Positions 4,402-54,900 of a stretch of 64,000 bases of DNA are shown here, in pieces. The notes under the pieces are model-generated. The model searched no databases. It was not told the DNA's origin and saw only the letters and a program-made list of their open reading frames with translations. The DNA lies in NCBI GenBank assembly GCA_037927135.1, contig JAXSPP010000007.1, forward strand, positions 1 through 64,000. The letters are read 5' to 3'. Position 1 is the stretch's first letter. Every line of letters starts with the position of its first letter. The stretch is from Candidatus Pampinifervens sinense (GTDB lineage Bacteria > Aquificota > Aquificia > Aquificales > Aquificaceae). The position numbers were made by a program, and so were the translations under genes.

Positions 4402-5328
4402 CTAGAACCTCAAGAGGCTTGCCCCCCATGTGAGGCCACCACCCATGGCAGTAAGCAGGACTATATTGCCCCTTTTTAGCCTTCCCTCCTCCTTGGCCTC
4501 GCAGAGGGCTATGGGTATGGATGCGGCGCTTGTGTTTCCATACTTGTGTATGTTTGAATAGACCTTTTCCATAGAAATACCAAGCCTTTCGGCCAAGGCC
4601 TGCATGATCCTTATGTTTGCCTGATGTGGAACTACCAAATCTATGTCTTCTTTGGAAACTCCAGCCCTTTGCATAACTTCTTCACACACATCTGCCATGG
4701 CCCTCACGGCCAGCTTAAAAAGCTCCTTTCCTTTCATGTTTATATAGCCACACCTTTCTGCGTACAGTATCTCCCAATAGTTGCCATCGGACCTCATAAC
4801 CGATGCCAAAAGCTCCCCTTCCCCTTCGGAGGAGAGGACCACTGCACCCGCACCATCTCCAAAGAGGACGCATGTGGACCTGTCCGTCCAGTTTACTATC
4901 TGGGATAGCTTTTCCGCACCTACCAGAAGGATGTTTTTTGCCTTTCCCGAACTTAGCAAGGCGCTGGCTATCTCAAGGCCATACAAAAAGCCGCTACAGG
5001 CGGCGGATATATCAAAGGCGTAGGCCTTGTGGCATCCAAGCCTTGCCTGCAAAAGGCATGCGCTGGCTGGAAAGCCTAGGTCTGGTGTGAGGGTGGCAAG
5101 GATTATAACATCAATATCCTCTGGTGAGAGGCTTGCATCCTCTAAGGCTCTAAGGCTTGCCCTGTATGCCATATCAAGGAGGCTTTCCTCCTTTGCTATC
5201 CTTCTTTCCTTTATGCCGGTTCTTGTGGTTATCCACTCATCGGATGTATCCACCATCTTCTCAAGGTCAAAGTTGGTCAAAACGTTTTCTGGAGTGTAAT
5301 AGCCCATACCCCTTATGCTTATACCCAT
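4402..5328 (-). CDS. fabH: Beta-ketoacyl-ACP synthase III
   Basis: DTSDEWI..RTGI, AACSGF, PHQAN, GNTSAAS. Confidence 0.97.
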   Translation of the reverse strand: MGISIRGMGYYTPENVLTNFDLEKMVDTSDEWITTRTGIKERRIAKEESLLDMAYRASLRALEDASLSPEDIDVIILATLTPDLGFPASACLLQARLGCHKAYAFDISAACSGFLYGLEIASALLSSGKAKNILLVGAEKLSQIVNWTDRSTCVLFGDGAGAVVLSSEGEGELLASVMRSDGNYWEILYAERCGYINMKGKELFKLAVRAMADVCEEVMQRAGVSKEDIDLVVPHQANIRIMQALAERLGISMEKVYSNIHKYGNTSAASIPIALCEAKEEGRLKRGNIVLLTAMGGGLTWGASLLRF

Positions 5329-6335
5329 CAGACCTTTACCTCTTGAGGCAATAATCTTTTTAGGTTTTCAGAAAGCCTTTCGTTGAAGTGATGGGTTAAA
5401 AACTCGTTGGCAACTCTTATGGCGTTCTTTATGGCCTTGGCGTTTGCCCTTCCATGGGTTATGATGACTGGCTTTTTTGCACCAAGGAGGGGTATGCCAC
5501 CATACTCGGTAAAGTCTGCCTTCTTTTTGAAGTTGTTCAAGGCAGGCCTCATAAGCAAGGCCCCTATCTTTGCCAAAAGGCTCTTTTGCACCTCCTCCTT
5601 TATCATCTGAAGCACAGCAAAGCCAAGGCTCTCACTTGCCTTTAGTATAACATTGCCCACAAAGCCATCGCACACTATAACGTCAAAGGTGCCCGCGTAT
5701 ATGTCCCTTCCCTCCGCATTTCCCTTAAAGTTTAGCTTGCTCGCCTTCAAAAGGGGATAGGTTTCCTTTACAAGCTCGTTGCCTTTGCCTTCCTCCTCTC
5801 CTATGCTAAGGATCCCCACCCTTGGGTTCTTTATTCCCAGTATCTCCTCGGCGTAAGTGTGCCCTATTACGGCAAAATGTAAAAGATGCTTAGGCTTACA
5901 GTCCACGTTGGCACCCACATCAATAAGCACAGTCTTCCCCTTTGGGTTAGGAAGGGCCACACCAATAGCTGGACGCTCAAGGTCCTCAATAGACCCTATG
6001 ACAAACTTACCCACTGTAAGCACTGCGCCCGTATTTCCGGCGGAGACCAAGCCATCGGCAAGCCCATCCCTTACAAGCTTCCCAGCCACAAAAAGGGAAG
6101 ATTGTTTTTTCTTTAAAACGTTGGAAGGTGGCTCGTTCATCTGGATGACCTCTGGTGCATGAACCACCTCCAGCTCTCCCTTAAAGCCCTCCCTCTTTAG
6201 TATGCTTTTTATCCTTTCTTCGTCTCCAACCAATATGCTTTCAAGACCCAGTTCCTTATAGGCCAAAATACAACCTTTAACTATCTCCTCGGGGGCATAA
6301 TCACCCCCCATGCAATCAACCGCTATCCTTGTCAT
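5328..6335 (-). CDS. plsX: Phosphate acyltransferase
   Basis: [27 protein letters not shown]; rpmF-plsX-fabH order. Confidence 0.97.
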
Positions 6336-6517
6336 GAAGTCTTTATAACTTCCCTGCCCTTATAATATCCACAGTAAGGGCATGCCCTATGGGGCATAAT
6401 AGGCTCACCACAGTTTGGACAACTGGCCAAGGATAGGGCTTTTAGCTTAGCAAAAAAGTTTTGAGCTCTTCTTTGATCCCTTCTCCATCTTGACGTTTTT
6501 CTCTTTGGAACAGCCAT
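6332..6517 (-). CDS. rpmF: 50S ribosomal protein L32 (Zn-ribbon form)
   Basis: [13 protein letters not shown]...[10 protein letters not shown]. Confidence 0.97.
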
Positions 6518-6554
6518 TTTAACGCCTCCATAGGAAATTTAAAGGAGATTTTTA

Positions 6555-7046
6555 TTATAGCATATTACTCCTTTTTAGAAGGTCCCCTAGCGTGATCTTC
6601 TCCTCTTCAATCTGTTTGGCCTCAAAGCCCGACATACAATCTGGACTACAAAGGGGCTTTATAGGAATGCTTAGGATGATCTGCTCTCTTACCAAGTTGG
6701 TAAGGTCAAATTCTTCCTCATTCTCATAGAAGGATACATCAAGGTCTGCAGGCTTTAGATACACCACATCCTCCATAGGATAAGGCTCTATCCTCACCAC
6801 TTCCTTCATGCTTATGTCCTTATGATACAGAGTAAGGCATCTACTACACTCTAATACCACATACCCTTCTATCTCCATATGCACCTTGTAGGCACCATCC
6901 TCCTTTGTTATCTCCACATAAACCGATATGGGCTCCTTTATTTCTCCTAAGTCTGGTGGTAGTTTAATATCCTCCGGTTTAAAAAGGAAGTTGTAAAAAA
7001 CCCTTTTCTTAGTTTTGAATATCTCCTTTAGATTTAATTTAACCAT
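6555..7046 (-). CDS. yceD: YceD/DUF177 family protein
   Basis: CSRCL and PIKPLCSPDC motifs, upstream of rpmF; start 7046 or 7064 uncertain. Confidence 0.85.
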   Translation of the reverse strand: MVKLNLKEIFKTKKRVFYNFLFKPEDIKLPPDLGEIKEPISVYVEITKEDGAYKVHMEIEGYVVLECSRCLTLYHKDISMKEVVRIEPYPMEDVVYLKPADLDVSFYENEEEFDLTNLVREQIILSIPIKPLCSPDCMSGFEAKQIEEEKITLGDLLKRSNML

Positions 7047-7091
7047 ATGTTTTAAAATATTCACATTTGAAAAGATTTCAAGGAGGTAAAG

Positions 7092-8069
7092 ATGAGGCTA
7101 GTGGCTGTAGGAGGAGGAACAGGGCTTTCAACCCTGCTGAGGGGGTTAAAGGAAAAGGTAGGAAAAGAAATTCAAGACCTTTCTGCCATAGTTACCGTTG
7201 CGGACAGCGGTGGAAGCACGGGAAGGCTAAGAAAGGTGTATAACCTTCCAGCACCTGGAGATATAAGGAACTGTATAGTGGCCCTCTCAGAAAGCGAAGA
7301 CATAATGAGGGAACTTTTCCAGTTTAGGTTCAAGGGGGAAGAGCTTGAAGGACACGCCTTTGGAAACCTTTTCCTTGTAGCCCTCACAGAGATAACGGGT
7401 AGCTTTATGCAAGCCATAAACATAGCTTCTCAAATCCTTAGAACAAAGGGGGAGATAATACCTGCAACCCTTGAAAGCATTCAACTTTGCGCAGAGTTCA
7501 GCGATGGAGAAAAGATATGTGGGGAGGAAGAGATAACCGAGTATGGTAAGGCAAAAAAGGCAAAGATTGAAAGTATATGGATAGAGCCGGAGGATGCAAA
7601 GGCCCCCATTGATGCCATAGCCAAGATAGAGTCCGCCGATGTTATAGTCTTTGGTCCTGGAAGTCTTTATACAAGCATCATACCAAACCTGCTTATAAAG
7701 GATATAAGGGAGGCTGTTCTTAGGTCTCCAGCCTTTAGGGTTTTTGTGGTAAACGCCATGACGCAACCAGGAGAAACGGATGACTTTACCGCCTACGATC
7801 ATATCAGAGTTTTTAAAGAGATTACTGGTATAGATAGGATAGATGCGGCTATTGTGAATACAAAGATGCCTTCAGACCAGGTTTTAAGAAGGTATTTAAA
7901 AGAGGGTCAGGAGCCTGTTATACCCGATGTGGCCAAGATAGCAAAAGAGGGCATTGAGGTGTATGCGGAGGACTTAATAGGTGAAAAGGAAGACTTTGTG
8001 AGGCATGACTCCAAAAGGCTTGCAGACCTTATAGTGGATATCTACAAAAAGCATGCTGTATTTTCTTGA
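7092..8069 (+). CDS. yvcK: YvcK/CofD-like UDP-GlcNAc-binding gluconeogenesis factor
   Basis: [35 protein letters not shown]. Confidence 0.92.
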
Positions 8070-9561
8070 CTTTGATACTTCAAAGCTTCCCACAGAAAAA
8101 GCCCATATAGTTGTATGCGGTAGCGGTATAGCTGGCTTAACTGTGGCCATAGTCTTAAAGGAGCTTGGCCTTGACCCAGTTATCCTAACAAGAGGCATTG
8201 GAAACACGTATTATTCCCAGGGTGGTATAGCCTGCGCCCTCCATCCGAAGGACAGTCCCTATCTTCACATGCTGGATACCCTTAGGGCTGGAAGAGGATT
8301 GTGTAAGGAGGAAAACCTTAGGATATTGGTGGATGAAGGCATCCAAAGGCTTATGGACCTAAAAAGGTGGGGTGTGGAGTTTGATGAAGATACTACCATA
8401 GAAGGGGGCCATTCCTTTCCAAGGGTTTATAAGGTAAAGGACTACACGGGAAGGGCTATATACGAAGCCCTTTGGAGGAGGGTGAAGGAGCTGAATATAA
8501 GGGTTTTGATGGGAGAGCTGCAAGAGATCTTGGGAGAAGAGAGTGTTGAAGGGCTAATATACTACGATGGGGAGCTAAAGCTTATAAGGACTCCAGTCCT
8601 TGTGCTTGCCACCGGTGGTGCAGCAAGCATGTTTTTACACACTTCCAACCCTGTGAAGGTAAGGGGGGATGCCCTCGGAATAGCCTTAAGAAAGGGATTG
8701 AGCTTGATGAATACAGAGTTTGTCCAGTTTCATCCAACGGTGGTAAAGAACACCAGCATACTCATATCGGAGGCGGTAAGGGGTGAGGGTGCCATAATTG
8801 TGGACCAAAGGGGTGAGAGGTTTGTAGATGAGCTAAAGCCAAGGGATGAAGTGGCAAGGGCTATCTATAAAAGGATAAAGGAAGGTCAGGAGGTATTTAT
8901 AGATCTGAGGAGCCTTGTCCATAAAGGTGTTAAACTTTCAGAAAGGTTTCCTACCATTTACAGCCTGCTGAAAGAGAGGGGTTATGACCCTGAGAGGGAG
9001 CCCATACCTATCACACCCGCTTCCCACTACTTTATAGGTGGTATAGAGGTGGACAGCTATGGGAGGACAGCCTTTCCTGGGCTTTACGCTGTTGGAGAGT
9101 GTGCCTGTACAGGAGTGCATGGTGCCAACAGGCTAGCCTCCAACTCCCTTTTGGAAGGGGTAGTCTTTGGATACAGGACGGCCTATAGGATATGTGGGGA
9201 TATGGCCTTTTTAAAGCTAAAAGAGGGGCCTGTTGAAAATAAAAGGGAAGGAAGGATGGACCCGCCTTTTAGCTTTGAGGATCTAAGAAGGCTCATGTGG
9301 GAGAGCTGCGGACTAGAGAGAGAAGAAGGCCAGTTGAAAGAGGCTGTAAAAAGGCTTAAAGGTTGGCTTGAAGGTTGGGAAAGCTGGAGGCCTACTGTGG
9401 AAAACAGACAGCTTTTGGATATAAGCCTTGTAGCTTTAGCAACCCTCAGCTGTGCTCTATGGAGGAGGGAAAGCAGAGGTGTCCACTATAGGACAGATTA
9501 TCCCTATGAGAGGGAGGAGTTCAGAAGGGATAGTTTTTATCGTTTAAAGGATTTGGTTTAA
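8053..9561 (+). CDS. nadB: L-aspartate oxidase
   Basis: [38 protein letters not shown]. Confidence 0.93.
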
Positions 9562-9573
9562 AATAAAGGGCTT

Positions 9574-10503
9574 ATGGGGAAGATAGCTTATGTTTTTCCA
9601 GGACAAGGTTCTCAGTATGTGGGCATGGGCTACGACTTTTATAAGGAGTTTTCAGAAGCTGCCCATGTCTTTCATAGTGCAGAGGGGGCCCTAAGGTACA
9701 ACCTTAGCGACATAATCTTTAAAGGGCCTGATGAGGAGCTAAACCGAACTATAAACACACAGCCAGCCATACTTACCACGAGCCTTGCCATATATGAGGT
9801 GCTAAGGTCTTATGGTTTTCCAGAGCCGGACTTTGTAGCGGGGCATTCCTTAGGAGAGTACACAGCCCTCGCTGTGGCTGGAGGTGTTGAGCTATTTGAA
9901 GCTGTAAGGCTTGCACATCTACGCGGTAAATACATGCAAGAGGCTGTGCCAGAAGGGAAAGGTGCTATGGCAGCCATTCTTAAACTACCACCGGAAAAGG
10001 TGGAAGAGGTATGTAGGCTTGCACAGGATGTTGGTGTGGTAGAGCCAGCAAACTACAACTCTCCAGAGCAAACGGTCATCTCTGGAGAAAAGGAAGCTGT
10101 AGAGAAGGCTAGTCAGATAGCAAGGGAGATGGGCGCTAAGGTCATCCCATTGAAGGTTTCTGTGCCATCCCATTGCTCACTTATGAAGCCTGCGGCGGAC
10201 ACTTTTAGAATAAAGCTTGCGCAAACTCCCATAAAGAACTTACGCATACCTTTAGTGCAAAATTACACCGCAAGGGCTCACACAATGGCACACGAGATAA
10301 GGGAGAATTTGTATAGGCAGATCTTTTCACCTGTAAGATGGTATCAGAGTGTGCTTTATATGGTAGAGCAAGGAGTGGATACCTTTATAGAAGTTGGACC
10401 CAAAAACGTGCTTTCAAAGCTCATACAGCAAACTGTGTCCCATGTGAGGGTCTTTAACGTAGAAAAAGTGGAGGATATAGAGAAGGTCAAAAGAGCACTC
10501 TAG
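9574..10503 (+). CDS. fabD: Malonyl CoA-ACP transacylase
   Basis: FPGQGSQ, TQPA, GHSLGEY. Confidence 0.96.
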   Translation: MGKIAYVFPGQGSQYVGMGYDFYKEFSEAAHVFHSAEGALRYNLSDIIFKGPDEELNRTINTQPAILTTSLAIYEVLRSYGFPEPDFVAGHSLGEYTALAVAGGVELFEAVRLAHLRGKYMQEAVPEGKGAMAAILKLPPEKVEEVCRLAQDVGVVEPANYNSPEQTVISGEKEAVEKASQIAREMGAKVIPLKVSVPSHCSLMKPAADTFRIKLAQTPIKNLRIPLVQNYTARAHTMAHEIRENLYRQIFSPVRWYQSVLYMVEQGVDTFIEVGPKNVLSKLIQQTVSHVRVFNVEKVEDIEKVKRAL

Positions 10504-10505
10504 CC

Positions 10506-11402
10506 ATGATAGAGGATCTTATACTGAAGGCAAAAGTGCTTCAATCGGCCCTCCCTTACATAAGGGAGTTTTATGGGAAGACCTTTGTAATAAAGTATGG
10601 TGGTTCTGCGATGGTTGAAGAAGAACTCAGAGAAAACTTTGCCAAGGATGTAGTGCTTCTCAGATATGTGGGGATAAAGGTGGTAGTAGTTCATGGTGGT
10701 GGGCCACAGATAAGTCAAACCTTGGAGAAGTTTGGCATAAAGCCACATTTTGTTGGTGGTATGAGAAAGACGGATGAGGAGACTATGCATGTGGTGGAGA
10801 TGGTCCTGTCGGGAGACATAAATAAGGATATAGTTGCTCTGATAAACAGGTACAGCGGTAAGAATGTGTATGCGGTTGGCCTCTCTGGAAGGGATGGACA
10901 GCTAATAAGAGCAAGGAAGTTGGATAAAGAAGCCTACTTTAGAGCTCTAGGTTTGCAGGTGCCAGAGGAGGATATAGGCTATGTGGGGCAGGTGGAAGGT
11001 ATAAATGTGGAGCTTCTTCAAACCCTTATGGATAAGGGCTATATTCCCGTCATAGCTCCCGTGGGTGTGGGAGAAAGGGGTGAAGCTTACAACATAAATG
11101 CGGACATAGCGGCCTCCGAGATAGCAAAGGCCCTAAAGGCAGAAAAGCTCATCTTCCTTACGGACACGGAAGGGGTGAAGGATGAAGAAGGCAAGCTAAT
11201 ATCTACGCTTAAAAGAGAGAGAGCGTTAAAGCTTATATCTGAAGGCGTTATAAAAGGTGGTATGCTTCCAAAGGTGAAGAGTGCACTGGATGCCATTCAG
11301 GGTGGTGTAAAGAAGGTTCATATAATAGATGGAAGGATAACTCATTCCATACTCTTGGAAGTATTTACAGAAGAAGGTGTGGGCACGGAAATAGTGGAAT
11401 AA
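10506..11402 (+). CDS. argB: Acetylglutamate kinase
   Basis: VIKYGG, VHGGGPQI, NINAD, GGMLPK. Confidence 0.96.
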   Translation: MIEDLILKAKVLQSALPYIREFYGKTFVIKYGGSAMVEEELRENFAKDVVLLRYVGIKVVVVHGGGPQISQTLEKFGIKPHFVGGMRKTDEETMHVVEMVLSGDINKDIVALINRYSGKNVYAVGLSGRDGQLIRARKLDKEAYFRALGLQVPEEDIGYVGQVEGINVELLQTLMDKGYIPVIAPVGVGERGEAYNINADIAASEIAKALKAEKLIFLTDTEGVKDEEGKLISTLKRERALKLISEGVIKGGMLPKVKSALDAIQGGVKKVHIIDGRITHSILLEVFTEEGVGTEIVE

Positions 11403-11507
11403 GCATATAAGGACATTTTAATAGCTTATGAAAAGATAAGAAAAAATGATTGAAAAAAGAAGATAAAGCTTTATATCCTATCTAAAACTACACTCGGGAG
11501 GTTCAAT

Positions 11508-11993
11508 ATGAAAAGGATCTTTCTATTTACTCTAGGTATAGGTACTCTGGCTTTTTCTTCACCAGTCTTTATGGGAGGTGAATACGCCAAAGCACTATGT
11601 GAAGCTTGGAACAAAACTCCACAGCTTGTAGATCAGCTTGGAAAGAGTGAAAGCTGGACGGCCGTTCAAGAGAGGAAGATATTCATCTACAGGGAGGATT
11701 GTGGTGAGGCAAAACAGATACAGCTAACCATAAGGAATGAGGGTGGTAAGGCCTTGTGTGTGTACGGTGGCCCCGCTAAGGATAAAAGGGGAAAGGATGA
11801 CTTTTTGATGTATGCTGAGACAAAAAGATGGTTGGAGATGGGAAGGAAGGAGTATGGGCCTATGAAGGCTATGATGTTAGGAAGACTGAAGTTTGAAGGG
11901 CCGAAGGGTGTGGCCATGAAGAACATGGGTCCCTTTGAAGCCTTCCTTGATATAGTGGATAGCCCACCCCATGATGCCAGTAAGTGCCCTTAA
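11508..11993 (+). CDS. Secreted SCP2 (sterol-carrier)-like protein
   Basis: Signal peptide; GPMKAMMLGRLKFEG resembles the SCP2 C-terminal signature. Confidence 0.65.
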   Translation: MKRIFLFTLGIGTLAFSSPVFMGGEYAKALCEAWNKTPQLVDQLGKSESWTAVQERKIFIYREDCGEAKQIQLTIRNEGGKALCVYGGPAKDKRGKDDFLMYAETKRWLEMGRKEYGPMKAMMLGRLKFEGPKGVAMKNMGPFEAFLDIVDSPPHDASKCP

Positions 11994-44613: not shown

Positions 44614-44695
44614 CGGCCACCTCCTTAAAAAGTTTAGCTATTAAAGTATAGCACAAGGCATATAATTAAAAGGATTATACAAAAAGGAGGAAAAA

Positions 44696-45796
44696 ATGGA
44701 CTTTAACTTTTCACAGCTGAGCGACCTAGTTCAAAGGGCTCTCAAGGACATGGACTTTGAAAGGCCCACACCAATACAAAGGGAAACCATACCCTTGGCC
44801 TTGAAAGGCTACGATATTATGGGGCAGGCTGCCACAGGAACAGGCAAAACGGCAGCCTTTGGCATACCCATAGTGGAAGGAAGCAAAAAGGAGGAAGGAA
44901 CCACAGCCCTTATAATGACACCCACAAGGGAGCTGGCCCTTCAGGTAAAGGAACAGTTGCAACAGCTATCCAAGTACAAAGGCCTTAAGGTCTTTAGCTT
45001 TTATGGTGGCACGCCAGTGCAAAAGGACTTAGAACTACTTTGGAAGGTCACACCAAACATAGTGGTTGGAACGCCAGGAAGGCTAAAGGACCTTATAATG
45101 AGAGGCCTTTTTAACTTTGATAACCTCAAATACTTTGTGCTGGACGAAGTAGACAGGATGCTTGATATGGGCTTTATAGAGGATATTGAGTGGATAATAG
45201 CCCAGCTACCAAAGGAGAGACAAACCTTTCTCTTTTCCGCTACCATACCAAGGGAGGTGGAAAGCCTCGCCAAAAGGCACCTGAGGAAGGACTACAAGTT
45301 TGTAAAGGTTATAACGGAAGAGCTAAAGCCAAAGATAGAAGAGAGGTTTATAAAGCTTAACTCTTCAAGACAAAAGCTTTCCGAGCTTGAAAAGATACTA
45401 AGAGAGCATCTCCTTGAAAAGGTCATAGTCTTTGTAAAGACAAAGAAGGATGCAAGAGAGATAACAGAGGAGCTAAAAAGAAGGGGCTTTAATGTGGTCT
45501 CCTTGCACGGCGATATGACGCAAAGACAGAGGGAAAACTCTTTGAGGCTTTTTAAGGAAGGAAAGGTAAAAATAGTGGTGGCCACCGATGTGGCCTCAAG
45601 GGGTCTTGATATAAAGGGCGTGAGCCTTGTGATAAACTACCACATACCGGAGGACCCAGAGGTGTATATACACCGGATAGGAAGGACTGGAAGGATAGGC
45701 TCCTACGGCAAGGCCTATAGCTTAGTGACGCCAGAGGACAGCAGGGCCCTTATAAGAATAAGGAAGCTAAAGGAAAGCTATAAAGATGGACCTTAA
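44696..45796 (+). CDS. DEAD-box RNA helicase (minimal core)
   Basis: Q motif, TGTGKT, PTRELA, DEVD, SAT, HRIGRTGR. Confidence 0.94.
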   Translation: MDFNFSQLSDLVQRALKDMDFERPTPIQRETIPLALKGYDIMGQAATGTGKTAAFGIPIVEGSKKEEGTTALIMTPTRELALQVKEQLQQLSKYKGLKVFSFYGGTPVQKDLELLWKVTPNIVVGTPGRLKDLIMRGLFNFDNLKYFVLDEVDRMLDMGFIEDIEWIIAQLPKERQTFLFSATIPREVESLAKRHLRKDYKFVKVITEELKPKIEERFIKLNSSRQKLSELEKILREHLLEKVIVFVKTKKDAREITEELKRRGFNVVSLHGDMTQRQRENSLRLFKEGKVKIVVATDVASRGLDIKGVSLVINYHIPEDPEVYIHRIGRTGRIGSYGKAYSLVTPEDSRALIRIRKLKESYKDGP

Positions 45797-46307
45797 AGAG
45801 AGGGCTTTAAAAATCAGGCTTTTGGTCCTTGATGTGGATGGTGTGCTAACCGATGGGAGGCTATATTACACTTCAAGGGGGGAGGAGATAAAGGTCTTTA
45901 ATGTGAAGGATGGCTTTGGTATAAAGATGGCGCAGATGGCTGGCATAAGGGTTGGAGTCATCTCTGGAAGGAAGAGCAAGGCTTTAAGGAAGAGGCTTGA
46001 GGAGCTTGGCATAGAAGAGGCCCACCTTGGCTTTAACGAAAAGCTTCCTGTTTTGGAAGATATGTTAAGGAGGCTTTCCCTTGGCTTTGAAGAGGTAGCC
46101 TTTATTGGGGATGACTATGTGGACCTGCCCATCTTAAAAAGGGTGGGCTTTCCCATGGTAGTTTGCGATGCACCAGAGGAGATAAAGGCCCATGCCCTTT
46201 ATACCACAAAGGCAAAGGGCGGAGAAGGGGCAGTAAGGGAGGCCATAGAGTTCCTTCTGAAGCTAAGGGGACAGTGGGAAGAGATAATAAGTAAATACCA
46301 TGCTTAG
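45786..46307 (+). CDS. kdsC: KDO 8-phosphate phosphatase
   Basis: DVDGVLTDG, GDD..D, GAVRE; next to lptC/lptA. Confidence 0.92.
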   Translation: MDLKERALKIRLLVLDVDGVLTDGRLYYTSRGEEIKVFNVKDGFGIKMAQMAGIRVGVISGRKSKALRKRLEELGIEEAHLGFNEKLPVLEDMLRRLSLGFEEVAFIGDDYVDLPILKRVGFPMVVCDAPEEIKAHALYTTKAKGGEGAVREAIEFLLKLRGQWEEIISKYHA

Positions 46308-46791
46308 GAGCCTTCTTATAAGCCTTATGATAATACTCACCTCTTACATGCTAAGGGCCTATGTGGATAGCTTTGGACCCACTGGAGGAGAGGAGAAGAT
46401 AGTAAATAGACTGGAAGGTGTGACCATAAGGTCCTACAGCAAAGGTGGTATTGAATGGACCATAAGGGGCAGATCCTTGGAGGTGGTAGGCAAAGACGTG
46501 CTTTTGAAGGGGGCAGAGCTTATATCTGAAGAGGCCACCATTAGGGCTGGAGAGGTTTATATAGATAGGAATACTGGAAAGGGTGAGCTTTTGGGAGGCA
46601 TTGAACTCATATCAAAGGACCTTGTGGCAAAGAGCCAAAGGGCCTATATGGACCTAAGGGAAGGAAGGTTTTATGGTGATGGCAGGATAGAGCTAAAGGA
46701 AGGAGACAAAAGGGTGGAAGGCTATGGCTTTGAGATAAGGCTAAAGCCTGTGAGGGTTATAATTAGTAAGGCGAGGGTAAACATAGAATGA
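46300..46791 (+). CDS. lptC: LPS export protein LptC-like
   Basis: N-terminal TM then beta-rich domain; between kdsC and lptA. Confidence 0.65.
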   Translation: MLRSLLISLMIILTSYMLRAYVDSFGPTGGEEKIVNRLEGVTIRSYSKGGIEWTIRGRSLEVVGKDVLLKGAELISEEATIRAGEVYIDRNTGKGELLGGIELISKDLVAKSQRAYMDLREGRFYGDGRIELKEGDKRVEGYGFEIRLKPVRVIISKARVNIE

Positions 46792-47246
46792 GAAGGGTTC
46801 TATTTTTCCTTTTATTGATTGCTTCCTTTGCCTTTTCACAGCCCATAGTGGGTGAAGGAGACCAGCTTACTTACGAAAAGGACAGGATAATCTATACGGG
46901 CAATGTAAGACTCACAAGGGGCAACGCCCTTTTGACAGCCAACAAGGTGATCATATACCTTGATGAAAACAGAAAGGCAAGGCTTATGGAAGCGGAAGGG
47001 AATGTAAAGTATGTGGAGGGAAACAGAAGGGCCTTTGCGGACAGGATGACCTATGACCTGAGGGAAGAGGTTATAACCCTTAGGGGTAGGGCAAGGGTGG
47101 AGGAGGGTCCAAACTTTGTGGAGGCAGAGGAGATAGTTTACTATAAGAAGGAAGATAGGGCTGTGGCCACAAGCAAAGGTTCAAGGGTGAGGACCTTTTA
47201 TGTGGAGGAAAAGGATGAAAAGGGCAGACCTAATAGAAAGCCTTAG
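46788..47246 (+). CDS. lptA: LPS transport periplasmic protein (OstA fold)
   Basis: Signal peptide, YTGNV, AEGNV, L.G.A.V. Confidence 0.82.
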   Translation: MRRVLFFLLLIASFAFSQPIVGEGDQLTYEKDRIIYTGNVRLTRGNALLTANKVIIYLDENRKARLMEAEGNVKYVEGNRRAFADRMTYDLREEVITLRGRARVEEGPNFVEAEEIVYYKKEDRAVATSKGSRVRTFYVEEKDEKGRPNRKP

Positions 47247-47490
47247 AAGGGAGTTTAGGCTTAGCAGGGAAGAAGCAAAAAGGTTTGTAGATTGCTTTTT
47301 TGAAGAGTTGGTAAATATGGTGGTAGAAAAGGGAAGGGTGGAACTGAGAGGCTTTGGTGTTTTTAAGCTAAAGAGCCTTAGCGGTAGGTTTATAAAGAAT
47401 CCAAAGACGGGCATTGAGATGTATGTGGAAGAAAGACACAGCATAAGCTTTAAGCCTTCAAGCCTGTTTAAGAAGAATGAGAAAGGTTGA
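47215..47490 (+). CDS. HU/IHF-family DNA-binding protein
   Basis: MKRADLI, VELRGFGVF, NPKTG, FKPS. Confidence 0.92.
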   Translation: MKRADLIESLRREFRLSREEAKRFVDCFFEELVNMVVEKGRVELRGFGVFKLKSLSGRFIKNPKTGIEMYVEERHSISFKPSSLFKKNEKG

Positions 47491-48517
47491 TGTGCTTATT
47501 GTAGGTGGTGGTCCTGCAGGTTCTACATGTGCTTATGAGCTTTCAAAGAGGGGCCTGAGTGTGATCTTTGTGGATATAAAGAGGAAAATAGGCACGCCGG
47601 TGCAGTGTGCCGAGTTTGTTCCCATACAGCTATACCACCAGTTTAAAGACTTCTTTCCAGAGGAAGCCATAGCCCAAAGGGTGGAGAATATGGTACATTT
47701 TACACCTTGGGGGGAGGTGGTCAGTATGTGGTCTGAGGGCTTTGTTTTAAACAGGGAGGTCTTTGATTACCATATAGCCAAGCTTGCCACAGAAATGGGT
47801 GCTGAATGCTTACTTAGGACACAGTTTATAGGCTTTGAGGATGGAAAGGTCTGGCTTGAAAATATAGACAAAAGGGAAAGGTTTTGCATAAAGGCCGATG
47901 TGGTGGTGGGTGCGGACGGACCAAGGTCCAAGGTGGCAAGGCTTACAGGAAAGGGAATAGAAAACTTCCTTACTACAGCGCAAGCCACCATGCCCTTAAA
48001 AGAGCCAATAAAGGACCTTTTGATATACTTCAGAGATTACATACCCGGTGGCTACGGATGGGTCTTTCCGAAGGGAGAGGTGGCCAATGTGGGCGTGGGC
48101 ATTGACCCTTCCTATCCTATCAATGTGATGGAGAGCTTAAGAAGGTTCATAAGGGAGGTATGTAAAGAGGGCATTGTGGAAGAGAGGATACTTAAAAGGA
48201 CTGGTGGGTGGATACCGGCTGATGGTCTTTTGCCTTTGGTAAGGGGAAGGGTGGTCCTTGTGGGGGATGCGGGGGGCTTTTGCCATCCTATAACCGGTGC
48301 GGGCATAGCCAACGCAGTCCTATCTGGTAGTATGGCTGGTAAATACATAGCGGAAGGAAACCTTGAAGAATACCAAGAGGAGGCAGAAGACACCTTTGGA
48401 AGCGTGCTATGGAGAGCATCGGAAAAGAGGAAAAAACACATGAAAAGCTGGGACAATCTAAAAGAGATAATACCAAAGACATGGATAGCCTTTGAAGACT
48501 ATTGGTGTATAATTTAA
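47477..48517 (+). CDS. Second geranylgeranyl reductase-family FAD oxidoreductase
   Basis: GGGPAG, PVQCAE, PGGYGWVFPKG, GDAGG..HPITGAGI. Confidence 0.88.
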   Translation: MRKVDVLIVGGGPAGSTCAYELSKRGLSVIFVDIKRKIGTPVQCAEFVPIQLYHQFKDFFPEEAIAQRVENMVHFTPWGEVVSMWSEGFVLNREVFDYHIAKLATEMGAECLLRTQFIGFEDGKVWLENIDKRERFCIKADVVVGADGPRSKVARLTGKGIENFLTTAQATMPLKEPIKDLLIYFRDYIPGGYGWVFPKGEVANVGVGIDPSYPINVMESLRRFIREVCKEGIVEERILKRTGGWIPADGLLPLVRGRVVLVGDAGGFCHPITGAGIANAVLSGSMAGKYIAEGNLEEYQEEAEDTFGSVLWRASEKRKKHMKSWDNLKEIIPKTWIAFEDYWCII

Positions 48518-48533
48518 AGCTAGGAGGTGGAAG

Positions 48534-49382
48534 ATGGACTTTTTAGGAAAAGAACAATCACCCTTAACCTTTGAAGAGTGGAACCAGCTGGAGAAGGCTA
48601 TAATTGAAGTTGCGAAAAAAACGCTTGTATGTAGAAGGTTTATGCCCGTTGTTGGCCCAATAGGTGTGGGCCATCAGGTAATATCTTATGATGTTTACCT
48701 TGGTGTGGAGCCAGGTGTATGTGAAGTAAGACCTGGGGAGGAAAGCGAACAGTGTGAGCCTGTAAGGACTGGAAGAAGAAGGCATATAGTCCTTCCAACC
48801 ATATACAAGCCCTTTAGTATAAGCTGGAGGGATTTAGAATACTACAGGCAGTTCAACCTTCCCATAGATACATCTCAAGCTGCTGCGGCAGCCTTTGCCA
48901 CAGCGGTGGCGGAGGACACTCTCATAATACATGGAAATCAAAAGCTGGAGATAGAGGGCCTTTTGACGGTGGAGGGAAGGCAAAGTATGTCCATGAGCGA
49001 TTGGGATGTGGTGGGCAATGCCTTCAACGATATATCCCTCGGTATAGCCAAGCTTTCGGAAAAGGGCTTTTACGGAGACTACTACCTTATACTAAACCCA
49101 AAGGACTACTTTAAGCTAAACAGGGTATATCACAACACGGGCCTTTTGGAGATTGAACAGATAAGAAAGCTTGTAAAGGATATATACTACACGCCCATAA
49201 TGCCAGAATCAAAGGCATTGCTTGTATCGGCAGGACCACAGAATATGGACATAGTCATAGGCCTGGACTTTAGCCTTGCCTATGTGGAATCTACCAACAT
49301 GGTGCATCACTTTAGGGTTATGGAGATAGTGGCACCGAGGATAAAGAGGCCTGGGGCCATACTGGTGATAGGGGAGAAGTGA
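48534..49382 (+). CDS. Family 1 encapsulin nanocompartment shell (linocin M18 family)
   Basis: MDFL....PL..EEW..L...A...L..RRF....GP.G N-terminus; IYK.F...WRDLE, A..ED..I..G, GLL; 282 aa; AGGAGGTG RBS. Confidence 0.9.
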   Translation: MDFLGKEQSPLTFEEWNQLEKAIIEVAKKTLVCRRFMPVVGPIGVGHQVISYDVYLGVEPGVCEVRPGEESEQCEPVRTGRRRHIVLPTIYKPFSISWRDLEYYRQFNLPIDTSQAAAAAFATAVAEDTLIIHGNQKLEIEGLLTVEGRQSMSMSDWDVVGNAFNDISLGIAKLSEKGFYGDYYLILNPKDYFKLNRVYHNTGLLEIEQIRKLVKDIYYTPIMPESKALLVSAGPQNMDIVIGLDFSLAYVESTNMVHHFRVMEIVAPRIKRPGAILVIGEK

Positions 49383-51226
49383 AGGAAAAGTGGAAGGTAA
49401 TAGAAAGGCTACTTTCTGAAGAGTATGATATTGAGGTACAGGGAAGTTATGAGGGGTGGGGTGCGGGCTACGACCCTAAGTTTTTACCCCTTACGGAGAT
49501 GTGGGCAAAGGGGGAGGTGGAGGATGTGCCGGAGGTGGTAAAGAGGCCAGCGGGGGTGGTCTTTCATATACAAGAGCTTTCAAAAAAATCGGAAGAGGAG
49601 GCCATAAACACCATAAGGCATGAGATTGAATATCTCTTTTCCACAGACCTTTATCTTTGGAGGCTTGGCCAGAGAGAGTTTTACAAGTTTGGCTTTACCC
49701 CCACCTCCTTCCTTGTGCTTTACTCTGTGCTTGAGTCCATAAAGACAGACTCAAGGATAATAAACAGCCATCCTCAAAACCAGTCAACAATCATAAAAAA
49801 CTACGAAGAGATTCTAAAAGAGATAGACACCTACTATCCACATCACAATTTTTCCCTTAGCCTTTTGAAGTCATGGCTTGGAAGGGAAGCCCTTCCCAAA
49901 GATACGGAAAGGATACTCTATGAATACTTGAACTCAAAAAACAGAGAAGCCTACGACATACTTATGGAAGACCTGCTTGGAAAGTATATAGCCCATATAG
50001 AAAAGGCACAAGAGATAAACTATATAGACCTCCTTTTGGATGAGGCGAGGGGAAAGGTAAGAAAGGATGCCCACAAGGGCAGGATAATGACGGACCTTCT
50101 CAAAAAGCTTCCAAAGGCTTTGCAAGAGGTCATAATAGAACACAAGGAAAAGAGGGCTATAGATATACCGGAGGAGAAGAGGAAGGAAATAATAAAGAGC
50201 CTGAGGAACATGCCCGACTGGATGAGGGACTACTTAAAACAGATGTCCTACTTGGATATGATAGAAAGGGATGTGGAGTTTATAAGGCACTTTTTGCCAA
50301 AGACCTTGGAGGTGGATATAGAGCATAGGGGTTTCCTTAGCTTTTTGATAAAGGGGTGGGAGGAACAAAAGAGCACAGCTTCCAGCGGTTTGAGCCTTGG
50401 GGGAAGGTCCGAAGAGAAGTCTCAAGAGGACAGGCTGTATGAAAAGGCCTACGGGATGAACAAGGAGGAGTTTAAGGCCTACAGGAGGATGATATCAAAC
50501 ATATTGCCCTATGTGGAGGCACTAAAGAGAAGGCTTAGAAAGCTAATGCCTGAGGAGGAGGAAGGCTGGTCTGGAAAATACTTTTATGGAAGAAGGCTTA
50601 ACCACAAAGTCCTAAGCTTGGAGGCTTCCATAGGAAGGGGGAGGATGTACATGAGGAGGGAAGAAGGCATAAGAAAGGAGCTTGCCTTTAAGCTTCTCAT
50701 AGATATATCCACATCCATGAAGAGGGAGGAGAAGATAAGGAAGGCTATAGAGGCCCTTCTTTTGTTCTCTGAAGTCATAAGCACTCTGAGGATGCCCTTT
50801 TCCATTGATGTGTTTAGCGACAGGGTGTTTAGATTGAAGGAATTCCATGAAGATTACAAGCTTGTAAGGTGGAGGATTTTGGAGCTTTTTAACATGCTTG
50901 GTGGCGGAACAAACCTTGAAAAGGCCCTCCTTTACGCATATGAAGATATACAAACCTTTTGTAAGAAGAACAACATAAGAGGCTGTATCCTTGTCTTCTC
51001 CGATGGTGAGCCCACAAGGGGCCTAAAAGGAAAAGAGCTAAAGGACCTTATAAACCAGATAAAGGCCATCACACCCATAATAGGCATAGGTGTAGGACTA
51101 GAAAAGAACTATGTGGATTACTACTTTGAAGGCACTGGGATAAAGATAAAGGATGTGTCTGAGCTTACCTTAGCCTTTACAAGGATAATAGAAAATCAGG
51201 CAAGGAGGCTTCTGGCCTTTCAATAA
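49379..51226 (+). CDS. VWA-domain protein (NorD/CbbO/CobT-like architecture)
   Basis: C-terminal MIDAS: DISTS, GGTN, SDGEP; GTGA overlap with the encapsulin stop. Confidence 0.85.
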   Translation: MKEKWKVIERLLSEEYDIEVQGSYEGWGAGYDPKFLPLTEMWAKGEVEDVPEVVKRPAGVVFHIQELSKKSEEEAINTIRHEIEYLFSTDLYLWRLGQREFYKFGFTPTSFLVLYSVLESIKTDSRIINSHPQNQSTIIKNYEEILKEIDTYYPHHNFSLSLLKSWLGREALPKDTERILYEYLNSKNREAYDILMEDLLGKYIAHIEKAQEINYIDLLLDEARGKVRKDAHKGRIMTDLLKKLPKALQEVIIEHKEKRAIDIPEEKRKEIIKSLRNMPDWMRDYLKQMSYLDMIERDVEFIRHFLPKTLEVDIEHRGFLSFLIKGWEEQKSTASSGLSLGGRSEEKSQEDRLYEKAYGMNKEEFKAYRRMISNILPYVEALKRRLRKLMPEEEEGWSGKYFYGRRLNHKVLSLEASIGRGRMYMRREEGIRKELAFKLLIDISTSMKREEKIRKAIEALLLFSEVISTLRMPFSIDVFSDRVFRLKEFHEDYKLVRWRILELFNMLGGGTNLEKALLYAYEDIQTFCKKNNIRGCILVFSDGEPTRGLKGKELKDLINQIKAITPIIGIGVGLEKNYVDYYFEGTGIKIKDVSELTLAFTRIIENQARRLLAFQ

Positions 51227-51539
51227 GGAGGCTTATACCTTCTTCAGGCTTTTCTATCAAAAAAGCGTATTGAGTTATCTTTGGATAGCTTTTTGCTTCG
51301 TTGAAGAACTCTTCACCTTGGGACCTTTGACCGAGGGCATAGTTTATAAGGGCCAAAAGCATATACTTCTCTTGGCAGTCCTCTGCCAGCATGAGCCACT
51401 TGGTGGCCTCCAAATACTTAAACTCTACCACATACCTCATGCCCACATAAAGGGGATCCCTATTCTTTAAAAAATGTTCCTTCCCAAGCCTATTTCCTTC
51501 CTTATCCACTATCCTTATCCTGAACCTGACCCTCATCAC
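51177..51539 (-). CDS. Hypothetical protein (TPR-like helices)
   Basis: 120-aa ORF filling the gap; helical Y..A..W/LALINYALG pattern. Confidence 0.6.
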   Translation of the reverse strand: MMRVRFRIRIVDKEGNRLGKEHFLKNRDPLYVGMRYVVEFKYLEATKWLMLAEDCQEKYMLLALINYALGQRSQGEEFFNEAKSYPKITQYAFLIEKPEEGISLLIERPEASLPDFLLSL

Positions 51540-53373: not shown

Positions 53374-54900
53374 TCATAATGTGGGTGCCTTTTCGTTTAT
53401 CCTGAACTGAAGGGCCTCTGCAATATGGTGGCTTGCTATCTTTTCTTCACCTTCAAGGTCTGCTATGGTCCTTGAGACCTTCAAAACCTTCATATAGCCT
53501 CTGCCTGTAAGGTTTAGCTTCTCAAGGGCACTCCTCAAGAGGTTTTTTGCCTCCTGCGTCATCACACAATACTTTTTCACCTCTTCATTGGTCATACGTG
53601 AGTTATACTTTGTTTTGCTGTTTTTGAACCTCTCCCTTTGGATTTCCACAGCTCTAATGACCCTCTCCCTTATCTGAGCGGATGTTTCTCCCGAACTCAT
53701 ACTAAGAAGCTCCTCCTTTTCCACTGGGTTTACCCAGACCCTTAGGTCTATCCTATCCATTATGGGCCCAGATATCTTGGATTGATAGGCTTTTAGTTGC
53801 ATTGGGGTGCATGTGCAGGCCTTGTATGGGTTTCCATAGTTTCCACAAGGGCATGGGTTCATGGCCACCACAAGCAAAAACTCTGAAGGAAAGCTCACCC
53901 TTCCTCCAACCCTTGAAACGGTAACCTTTCCATCCTCTAAGGGCTGTCTTAGAGATTCTATGGCCTTTCTGCTAAACTCTGGAAACTCATCAAGGAAGAG
54001 AACACCCCTATGGGCTAAGGAAATCTCCCCCGGCTGTGGTATGGTGCCACCTCCCACAAGGGCGGACTCTGAGGCGTTGGTAAGAGGATTTCTAAAGGGC
54101 CTTTTGGTTATTATGGGAGTCTTCTCATCCAAAAGGCCTGCCACGCTGTATATGCGTGTTATTTCTATAGCCTCTTCAAAGGTCAAGGGTGGCATTATGG
54201 TTATGAGCCTTTTGGCGAGCATGCTTTTGCCAGCTCCTGGAGGGCCAATAAGCATTACAGGATGAAAACCCGCTGCCGCTATCTCCATAGCCCTCTTTGC
54301 TTGATGCTGTCCATAGACCTCGCTAAAATCCACATCAAAGCTTTCAAAGTTTGAAAAGACCTCTTGAAGGTCCACCCTTACTGGCTCTTTTTTTATATTA
54401 CCCGCTAAAAAATCCACTACCTCTTTTAAAGATTCAAAGCCATAAACCTCCACACCTTCCACAATGCCAGCTTCCTTTGCGTTCCTCATAGGCACTATAA
54501 AACGCCTATAGCCCAGCTCTTTCAAGGATAAAACCACCGGCAAAACGCCCTTCACAGGGTTTATCTTCCCATCAAGGGAGAGCTCGCCCATGACCACATA
54601 ATCCTCTGGGAAGTCCAAGCCTGTGGAAAGCCTTATGATGCCAAGGGCTATGGGAAGGTCGTAGAAGGTGCCTTGCTTTTTAAGATGTGAGGGAGAGAGG
54701 TTTACCGTTATCCTTTTTACTGGAAGCTGAAAGCCTGTGTTCTTTAGGGCTGACCTTACCCTGTCCTTTGCTTCGTTTATGGCCTTGTCTGGAAGGCCCA
54801 CGATGGAAAACTGAGGAAGCCCGTTGGATATGTCCACCTCCACATCCACCTCAAACCCCTCTATCCCCAAAACCCCACCGCTTTTTATCCTACAGAACAT
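53374..54900 (-). CDS. comM: ComM/YifB Mg-chelatase-like AAA+ ATPase
   Basis: VGLPD..E..DRV, GPPGAGKS, GEISLAHRGVLFLDE, NPCPCG. Confidence 0.94.
   Translation of the reverse strand: MFCRIKSGGVLGIEGFEVDVEVDISNGLPQFSIVGLPDKAINEAKDRVRSALKNTGFQLPVKRITVNLSPSHLKKQGTFYDLPIALGIIRLSTGLDFPEDYVVMGELSLDGKINPVKGVLPVVLSLKELGYRRFIVPMRNAKEAGIVEGVEVYGFESLKEVVDFLAGNIKKEPVRVDLQEVFSNFESFDVDFSEVYGQHQAKRAMEIAAAGFHPVMLIGPPGAGKSMLAKRLITIMPPLTFEEAIEITRIYSVAGLLDEKTPIITKRPFRNPLTNASESALVGGGTIPQPGEISLAHRGVLFLDEFPEFSRKAIESLRQPLEDGKVTVSRVGGRVSFPSEFLLVVAMNPCPCGNYGNPYKACTCTPMQLKAYQSKISGPIMDRIDLRVWVNPVEKEELLSMSSGETSAQIRERVIRAVEIQRERFKNSKTKYNSRMTNEEVKKYCVMTQEAKNLLRSALEKLNLTGRGYMKVLKVSRTIADLEGEEKIASHHIAEALQFRINEKAPTL

Follow-up and report, generated by a model that had tools for sequence, protein, structure and literature searches.

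A family 1 encapsulin of Candidatus Pampinifervens sinense with a ferritin-like cargo apparently encoded in trans, and the likely separate role of its VWA neighbour

An encapsulin gene beside a VWA gene

The window analyzed here is a 64,000-nucleotide stretch of the genome of Candidatus Pampinifervens sinense (Aquificaceae; contig JAXSPP010000007.1, positions 1 to 64,000 of the forward strand). It carries a family 1 encapsulin gene whose stop codon overlaps the start codon of a gene for a 615-amino-acid (aa) protein with a VWA domain. This arrangement raises two questions: what does the shell enclose, and does the VWA protein act on it? The two genes and their junction are the following.

48534-49382, + strand: family 1 encapsulin shell protein, 282 aa, ATG start, from the list of open reading frames (ORFs) and curated family models
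49379-51226, + strand: VWA protein, 615 aa, GTG start
49379-49382, + strand: GTGA overlap of 4 bp, where the GTG start of the VWA gene overlaps the TGA stop of the encapsulin gene

Judging from sequence comparisons, the shell is of an ordinary iron-storing kind, and the gene for its ferritin-like cargo is located on a different contig of the genome. The VWA gene most likely forms part of a separate AAA+ ATPase machine and not of the shell. We consider it probable, on the whole, that an EncA-type shell receives its cargo in trans, that the VWA protein is the adaptor of a separate AAA+ machine and that the adjacency of the two genes reflects synteny. The two systems would then share one transcription unit. 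The shell would be a classical family 1 shell of the Myxococcus xanthus EncA type, and its cargo a 296-aa two-domain bacterioferritin-like ferroxidase, presumably loaded, as in the rest of the family, through a C-terminal LTVGDL tail. Going by the same family, the particle would oxidise Fe(II) and store iron. The 615-aa protein, with its zincin-like N-domain, floppy linker and NorD/Rea1-type domain with a metal ion-dependent adhesion site (MIDAS), would serve as the adaptor in a so far uncharacterised AAA+ machine of two components. In the manner of NorQD, CbbQO and Rea1, the metal of the MIDAS may hold an acidic residue of a client protein as the ring of the ATPase exerts its pull. The adjacency itself would be lineage-restricted synteny within a long, tight string of same-strand genes, and would carry no evidence of shared function.

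The shell and its cargo

The encapsulin matched the curated model NF041155 (encap_f1) with 270.4 bits, relative to a cut-off of 100, and PF04454 with an E-value of 1.5e-71 (241 bits). Its nearest solved shell is EncA of M. xanthus (4pt2; E = 4.4e-66), and the shell of T. maritima is far more distant (3dkt; E = 1.7e-11). The sequence aligned over its full length to EncA 4pt2 and to 20 more solved encapsulin-type chains, which suggests a protomer of the HK97 fold.

The initial annotation had reported that no gene for DyP, Flp, hemerythrin or IMEF adjoins the encapsulin gene, and we observed the same with the ORF list of the window and with family scans. The system does not lack cargo, however, as emerged from the genome-wide scan for targeting tails that the initial annotation had itself proposed. 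We ran the scan on the last 30 residues of the 4605 ORFs of at least 60 aa in the window's own genome (G000), using four tail patterns. A single ORF matched all four.

G000 C5:136056-136946: two-domain bacterioferritin-like cargo, 296 aa, on a separate contig of the window genome, ending NRLTVGDLRKRDA

The tail of this protein reads LTVGDLRKRDA. In Pfam, it matched Ferritin in two stretches, Rubrerythrin and Ferritin-like, and residues 2-295 aligned to the PDB entry 9viw, titled 'Bacterioferritin' (306 aa, with a tail-like C-terminus; E = 5.3e-128). The strict tail pattern presented one other C-terminal match, a 146-aa ORF without any Pfam family (C3:152748-153188), where LGLGNL stands 12-17 residues before the end; the GSL tail pattern also matched three ORFs of 60-103 aa.

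The tail is conserved among relatives. We compared 19 orthologous cargo loci with all three families of the order covered; one of them (G042) is cut by a contig end, and the 18 complete orthologues all have [LF]T[VI]G[SDGNE]L as their C-terminal tail. In one relative (G035), the encapsulin gene is directly followed by a gene for a 307-aa Ferritin/Rubrerythrin protein ending in ALTVGSLFKKH, a canonical family 1 targeting tail. The shell and the cargo also tend to occur together: a full-length cargo is present in each of the seven encapsulin-positive genomes of family f3, where the gene is unlinked to the encapsulin gene in the genomes compared (G050, G058 and G060). Of the nine f3 genomes without encapsulin, one carries the cargo gene, on a contig of 1.9 kb, and another a fragment interrupted by a stop codon; the remaining seven gave nothing beyond weak matches to short ferritin-like ORFs. 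Family f2 has neither encapsulin (0 of 8 genomes) nor a full-length cargo. The fragment just mentioned (G056:C102:40405-40563) contains an in-frame TAG, and it looks like a case of joint decay of shell and cargo.

A bacterioferritin-type cargo for encapsulins of Aquificae is already in print. Andreas & Giessen 2021 (PMC8346489) report, for a few Firmicutes, Aquificae, Chloroflexi and Cyanobacteria, bacterioferritin cargos that comprise two bundles and bear a tail, and supplement 3 of that paper gives 'Bacterioferritin' as the cargo for Hydrogenobaculum and Hydrogenothermus. For Thermocrinis, Hydrogenobacter, Hydrogenivirga, Aquifex and Sulfurihydrogenibium, the same supplement enters the cargo type 'Minor' and leaves the accession of the cargo blank. 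As far as those rows go, the results above suggest that the Aquificae encapsulins listed in this way, which are the majority, do possess a cargo, namely a bacterioferritin-like protein that bears a tail and is encoded in trans. The apparent oddity of the locus is thereby gone: these shells of Aquificaceae are not cargo-less. In a portion of its text, a 2024 review (PMC11202242) treats the corresponding 'cage in a cage' idea.

Two further observations concern the shell. Across 10 encapsulins of families f1 and f3, C63 is invariant and C74 is present in at least 90% (window 48720-48755); M. xanthus EncA has no cysteine at the aligned places, and the two residues, in a loop, could be joined as a disulfide or bind a metal. 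The PDB entries 9viw, 9i8e and 9i8f hold structures titled 'Bacterioferritin' (306 aa) and 'Encapsulin' (278 aa; E about 1e-63), and no paper on them turned up in searches of the encapsulin literature.

Architecture of the VWA protein

The initial annotation had called the second gene a 615-aa protein with a MIDAS-bearing VWA domain of the NorD/CbbO kind, and both points held. Its parts are the following.

49379-50368, + strand: N-domain, residues 1-330, mostly helical, zincin-like, with a degenerate motif H81-E82-x-x-Y85
50363-50416, + strand: disordered linker, residues 329-346, including SSGLSLGGR, with a predicted local distance difference test (pLDDT) below 50
50636-51226, + strand: VWA domain with a complete MIDAS, NorD/Rea1-like, which follows a helical extension beginning near residue 349

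The VWA_2/VWA families of Pfam matched residues 439-574, and none of the five MIDAS residues (D442-x-S444-x-S446, T511 and D542) varies in an alignment of 36 homologues. AlphaFold2 modeled the whole protein with a pLDDT of 84.3 and the N-domain alone with a pLDDT of 93.6 and a predicted template modeling score (pTM) of 0.90. When the modeled C-terminal part was compared with solved structures using Foldseek, the best match was the VWA domain of NorD in NorQD (9qhd_G; E = 4.9e-9 over 251 columns), followed by the MIDAS domains of Rea1/MDN1 (E = 1e-7 to 4e-8). In agreement with the model, the profile of the 36 homologues matched Midasin (6qt8; E = 5.3e-11) at positions 360-530, which include the helical extension. 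No NCBIfam model matched the protein, and none of the Pfam families covers the N-domain. The VWA protein would resemble the NorD, CbbO and CobT adaptors in its working, and is not a member of those families. A word-indexed search returned 101 clusters of relatives, and the names given are nearly all from Aquificaceae (Thermocrinis, Hydrogenobacter, Hydrogenivirga, Aquifex and metagenome-assembled genomes); one metagenome-assembled genome is labelled Acidobacteria.

The fold of the N-domain is more difficult to establish. Foldseek found no match to it in the PDB at E <= 0.001 and only weak rows in BFVD. With VIA-align, residues 1-211 retrieved nearly exclusively zincins (3cmn, DPP III, ZMPSTE24, BepA and minigluzincins), with Z-scores of 4-6 that lie below the tool's noise level for helical proteins. 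It is consequently the motif that carries more of the assignment as zincin-like. When 1.84 billion representatives were searched with a profile built from the N-domain alone, 56 proteins were retrieved, among which relatives of 740-995 aa have the same architecture, with a C-terminal VWA/CobT_C domain. These distant relatives retain HExxH (H137, E138 and H141 are invariant in 19 sequences), whereas the proteins of Aquificaceae have H81-E82-x-x-Y/L at this place and have lost the second histidine. This suggests that the N-domain is probably zincin-like and that catalysis was presumably lost in the Aquificaceae lineage. Residues 228-290 gave a weak match to a small three-helix unit similar to sigma region 4.

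Some similarity to CobT was also detected. The N-domain weakly matched phage 'CobT-like'/VWFA proteins with lengths of 570-800 aa (E = 0.04-0.3, at a probability of 0.85-0.98), the atlas features led to clusters from phages, including one in which PF06213 CobT makes up 34%, and CobT_C matched 7 of the 36 VWA homologues. We rejected the identification of the protein as a CobT: distant relatives score about 20 bits against TIGR01651, for which the cut-off is 759.

The linker bears on a different idea, namely that the shell takes up the VWA protein as a second cargo or binds it as an accessory, through a non-canonical internal or N-terminal peptide such as SSGLSLGGR. The gene adjoins the shell gene, and N-terminal targeting peptides exist in the ferredoxins of Firmicute systems, as part of PMC8346489 reports. 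The initial annotation had placed SSGLSLGGR at nucleotide 50381, which is correct, and had likened it loosely to loading peptides. This likeness did not hold up: the segment is predicted to be disordered (pLDDT < 50) and is not conserved in seven orthologues from seven genera, and we rejected it as a loading peptide. Moreover, the genome-wide scan found no tail-like motif in the 615-aa protein, whose C-terminus (...ARRLLAFQ) lies within a predicted helix reaching residue 613. A two-domain protein of 615 aa with a cytoplasmic ATPase partner is also ill-suited to the interior of a shell. We judge this idea to be very improbable.

A candidate AAA+ motor

If the VWA protein is an adaptor, it needs a motor. 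The initial annotation had seen no MoxR gene in the window, and we likewise found no cognate AAA+/MoxR gene beside the VWA gene in the window. Following its suggestion to locate MoxR and CbbQ genes, we found a single clear MoxR of the AAA_3 type on contig C6, an AAA_5 protein of 937 aa on contig C1, and no match to PF08406 (CbbQ_C) in the window genome.

G000 C1:12342-15155 (L033:4343-7156, - strand in L033): 937-aa protein with an AAA_5 module at residues 658-791, the best AAA_5 match in the genome

The nearest solved relatives of its AAA module are CbbQ (5c3c, E = 5.3e-15; 6l1q, E = 1.7e-11) and NorQ (9qh4, E = 1e-7). The approximately 650 residues that precede the module matched no Pfam family.

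The evidence that joins the VWA protein to a motor comes from its distant homologues, two of whose loci were read out of the 56 relatives. In L051 (G061), the genes of a 743-aa VWA homologue (6001-8232) and of an AAA_5 protein of 1169 aa (8229-11738) have 4 bp in common. In L055 (G227), on the minus strand, a 755-aa VWA homologue (8345-10612) is followed after 4 nt by a 1124-aa AAA_5 protein (4966-8340). Both of these ATPases are homologous to the 937-aa protein (E = 1e-66 and 1e-73), the alignments covering the last 530 residues of the latter, and the VWA protein of the window genome aligns to that of L051 in both domains (E = 3e-18 and 3e-15). Since the distant homologues directly abut giant AAA_5 genes homologous to the 937-aa protein, the comparison indicates that the VWA protein is part of a two-gene module of adaptor and motor, which would have come apart in Aquificaceae. 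The cognate motor is most likely the 937-aa protein. Its phylogenetic distribution is similar to that of the VWA protein: the 937-aa protein was found in f1 only among 61 genomes (36 of 36 in f1, the family of the window; 0 of 8 in f2; 0 of 16 in f3), and the VWA protein is present in 34 of 36, 0 of 8 and 0 of 16 genomes, respectively. A search of the window genome with PF13519 (VWA_2) gave no match, but this search is too insensitive to count VWA genes, because the 615-aa protein does match VWA_2 by hmmscan.

Pairs of MoxR and VWA proteins are the textbook case, and the partner might instead be the MoxR protein of the AAA_3 type (303 aa; G000 C6:20721-21632). It is the one clear AAA_3 MoxR in the genome and it has no DUF58 or VWA neighbour, lying between rimP/nusA and an OmpA-family gene. 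This MoxR is, however, present throughout the order (f1, 32 of 36; f2, 7 of 8; f3, 16 of 16), whereas the VWA protein is confined to f1, and in both distant loci the VWA homologue abuts the giant AAA_5 type. A MoxR partner thus appears distinctly unlikely to us. The pairing of a zincin-like MIDAS adaptor with an AAA_5 ATPase of 0.9-1.2 thousand aa would constitute a conserved, unnamed two-gene module, common to Aquificaceae and some bacteria with small genomes.

Conservation of the encapsulin-VWA adjacency

Whether the VWA protein acts on the shell depends largely on what is made of their adjacency. The two genes are adjacent in 2 of the 12 genera of the family. In nine of the 12 f1 genomes from outside the genus of the window (g1), they are unlinked, either on other contigs or, in three complete genomes, 262, 353 and 427 kb apart, and the neighbours of both genes vary in these nine genomes. 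The conservation of the neighbourhood, which the initial annotation had proposed to check, is thus observed within g1 and in one genome of a second genus (G029) and is absent from these nine. Furthermore, 7 of the 16 genomes of f3 possess an encapsulin without the VWA protein, and their shell and cargo are of the same type. Two genomes of g1 (G002 and G021) lack both genes, and a search for the flavoprotein gene that precedes the encapsulin gene gave no match in them either (E <= 1e-40). This co-absence is uninformative on function, because it is explained by the loss of a whole block or by a gap in the assembly.

Several observations weigh against a complete separation of the two systems. Of the relatives in the same genus, 22 possess both genes, and every one of them shows the adjacency with the same 4-bp overlap and offset; counting the window genome, this arrangement, which allows for translational coupling, is seen in 23 of 23 genomes of g1 and in G029, where the whole upstream gene string is retained as well. 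In two further genera, the genes lie 22 kb (G031) and 12 kb (G035) apart. The adjacency in g1 and G029 and the proximity in G035 and G031 suggest that the linkage is old. Both genes are also present in the same 34 of 36 f1 genomes. As for expression, one RNA-library contig crosses the encapsulin/VWA junction (48576-49437), which makes co-expression plausible. NorD-like adaptors act in metal handling, which would fit an iron compartment. Finally, the pairing of VWA and AAA+ genes is based on two of two loci that are kin, belonging to one class, and are not independent, and the genes of the VWA protein and the 937-aa ATPase are nowhere adjacent in the Aquificaceae genomes compared.

The RNA-library contigs come from one run on a relative that is roughly 95% identical, and they cover 48576-49952 with a depth of 19.8 over the encapsulin gene and 7.8 over the 5' part of the VWA gene; contigs of this kind are unable to prove a single transcript or its start. 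Three metatranscriptomes available as raw reads contributed 0, 0 and 6 reads, too few for a test.

A rival explanation, in line with the initial annotation, is that the VWA adaptor and its AAA+ motor act on the encapsulin, with the MIDAS docking on the shell or its cargo and remodeling it so as to release or deliver iron. The coupled arrangement in g1 and G029, the 12-22 kb distances in two more genera and the contig over the junction favor this explanation, as does the nearest solved VWA domain, that of NorD, which is part of an iron-inserting machine. The exit of iron from encapsulins is described as open in part of the 2024 review (PMC11202242). The genomic evidence points in the other direction: the unlinked genes in nine of the 12 f1 genomes outside g1, the f3 encapsulins that have the same cargo and no VWA protein, and the distant VWA-AAA+ pairs, which stand in two genomes (G061 and G227) where no encapsulin was found and for which completeness is not given. 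In addition, the gene string around the encapsulin also contains unrelated genes, and overlap is common in this genome. Among papers containing both 'encapsulin' and 'von Willebrand', none concerned a link between encapsulins and VWA proteins, by title and abstract. The main text of PMC8346489 does not use the term VWA, and one row of its supplement 3, 'Aquificae bacterium', has a VWA protein at +1 of the encapsulin, as in the window. We regard an action of the VWA protein on the shell as unlikely. Its more specific form, in which the zincin-like/MIDAS adaptor and the giant AAA_5 motor open the shell or extract the bacterioferritin-like cargo and thereby mobilise iron in Aquificaceae, seems to us slightly less likely again. 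If true, it would be the first dedicated unloading machinery known for any encapsulin, and with an iron-storage shell as the client, how iron leaves an encapsulin would become testable.

We therefore retain an adjacency by synteny as the preferred explanation, and the signals around the junction can be read along with it. The overlap of the encapsulin stop and the VWA start (GTGA), noted by the initial annotation, is indeed present. Among 1073 same-strand neighbour pairs, however, 548 overlap (in 218 cases by 4 bp exactly) and 825 are no more than 20 nt apart, counts that were obtained from crude longest-ORF calls and overestimate the overlaps. The 4-bp overlap thus carries little weight, because such an overlap is the local norm in this genome. 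The ribosome-binding site and the TATAAT that the same annotation had placed before the encapsulin gene can both be read in the sequence.

48522-48529, + strand: Shine-Dalgarno sequence AGGAGGTG, 4 nt 5' of the encapsulin ATG at 48534
48508-48513, + strand: TATAAT hexamer, within the last codons (I-I-stop) of the upstream flavoprotein gene

The AGGAGG of the Shine-Dalgarno sequence is retained in the 10 same-genus loci inspected. The hexamer is a possible internal -10 element, and it is retained in 10 of 10 same-genus loci matched by script (L023 lies outside the start pattern of the script and was not evaluated). TATAAT occurs 47 times in the window, relative to 38.6 +/- 5.65 in shuffled sequences, and 8 of 100 shuffles reached 47. 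The promoter scan found no two-hexamer site on the + strand 5' of the encapsulin gene. The hexamer is therefore less weighty than it seems, since it is common in the window, falls in no two-hexamer site of the promoter scan and overlaps the codons of the upstream gene.

The gene string around the encapsulin

The encapsulin gene is the seventh of a string of eight same-strand ORFs, which are separated by overlaps or by gaps of less than 20 nt.

44696-51226, + strand: string of ORFs of 366, 173, 163, 152, 96 (HU, PF00216), 346 (geranylgeranyl-reductase family), 282 (encapsulin) and 615 aa (VWA), in this order
47477-48517, + strand: geranylgeranyl-reductase-family flavin adenine dinucleotide (FAD) flavoprotein, 346 aa (TIGR02032, 201 bits)

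ORFs with sizes matching the eight of the string are found in the same order in G029 (L023). Another TATAAT (44661-44666) lies in the gap 5' of the first gene. The flavoprotein gene ends 16 nt before the encapsulin start and its product has no targeting tail at its C-terminus (...FEDYWCII), as the initial annotation had already stated for this upstream gene. Flavoproteins of this family are found directly 5' of the encapsulin gene in three genera (g1, g6 and g8: window 47477-48517, L023:7593-8627 and L024:5761-6912), with G029 and G031 among the genomes concerned. In Hydrogenobaculum sp. HO, a row of supplement 3 of PMC8346489 places a gene of the same family eight genes away from the encapsulin. 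Flavins and flavoproteins are discussed as routes for the release of iron from encapsulins in part of PMC11202242, which makes this neighbour of interest for iron release.

Downstream of the string, an ORF of 120 aa (51177-51539, - strand) runs towards the VWA gene and shares the last 50 nt of that gene's 3' end; no Pfam family matched it, a TPR match being far below threshold. A ComM/YifB-type 'Mg chelatase-like' AAA+ protein is encoded 2 kb 3' of the VWA gene (53374-54900, - strand). It matched PF01078 (1.1e-90), PF13541 and PF13335, and is not a MoxR.

Comparison with known systems

The family 1 encapsulins with a Flp+Flp cargo, which consists of a pair of four-helix bundles, are described in part of PMC8346489 and represent the closest published counterpart in several respects: they have the same shell family, a two-domain ferritin-like cargo and an [LF]T[VI]G.L tail, and they occur in the same order. 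The adjacent arrangement of G035 is like that of the Bfr-cargo encapsulins treated in the same paper. In contrast to these published systems, the window genome and the majority of genomes in the order have the cargo gene at a site unlinked to the shell gene.

M. xanthus EncA, with its cargos EncB, EncC and EncD, is the nearest solved shell, and ferritin-like cargos are common to both systems. Its cargo genes are also partly unlinked. The cargo of EncA is a two-helix EncFtn, whereas the protein found here is Bfr-like, with two bundles fused in one chain.

For the VWA protein, the NorQ-NorD system provides the best structural match, between the VWA/MIDAS domain of NorD and the predicted VWA domain. 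The similarity does not extend to the rest: the N-domain is zincin-like and belongs to no curated family, and the candidate motor differs from NorQ in its 937 aa, its long N-terminal extension and its unlinked gene. No nor gene context was found in six VWA neighbourhoods scanned outside g1. The CbbQ-CbbO system has in common with this one the C-terminal MIDAS VWA domain of the adaptor, but the genome contains no CbbQ_C and no Rubisco context was seen. CobS-CobT and the phage CobT-like VWA proteins are related through a weak likeness of the N-domain and the CobT_C matches, and the protein is not a CobT. Finally, Rea1/Midasin is a single eukaryotic chain with six AAA modules, whereas here the adaptor and its putative motor are separate proteins.

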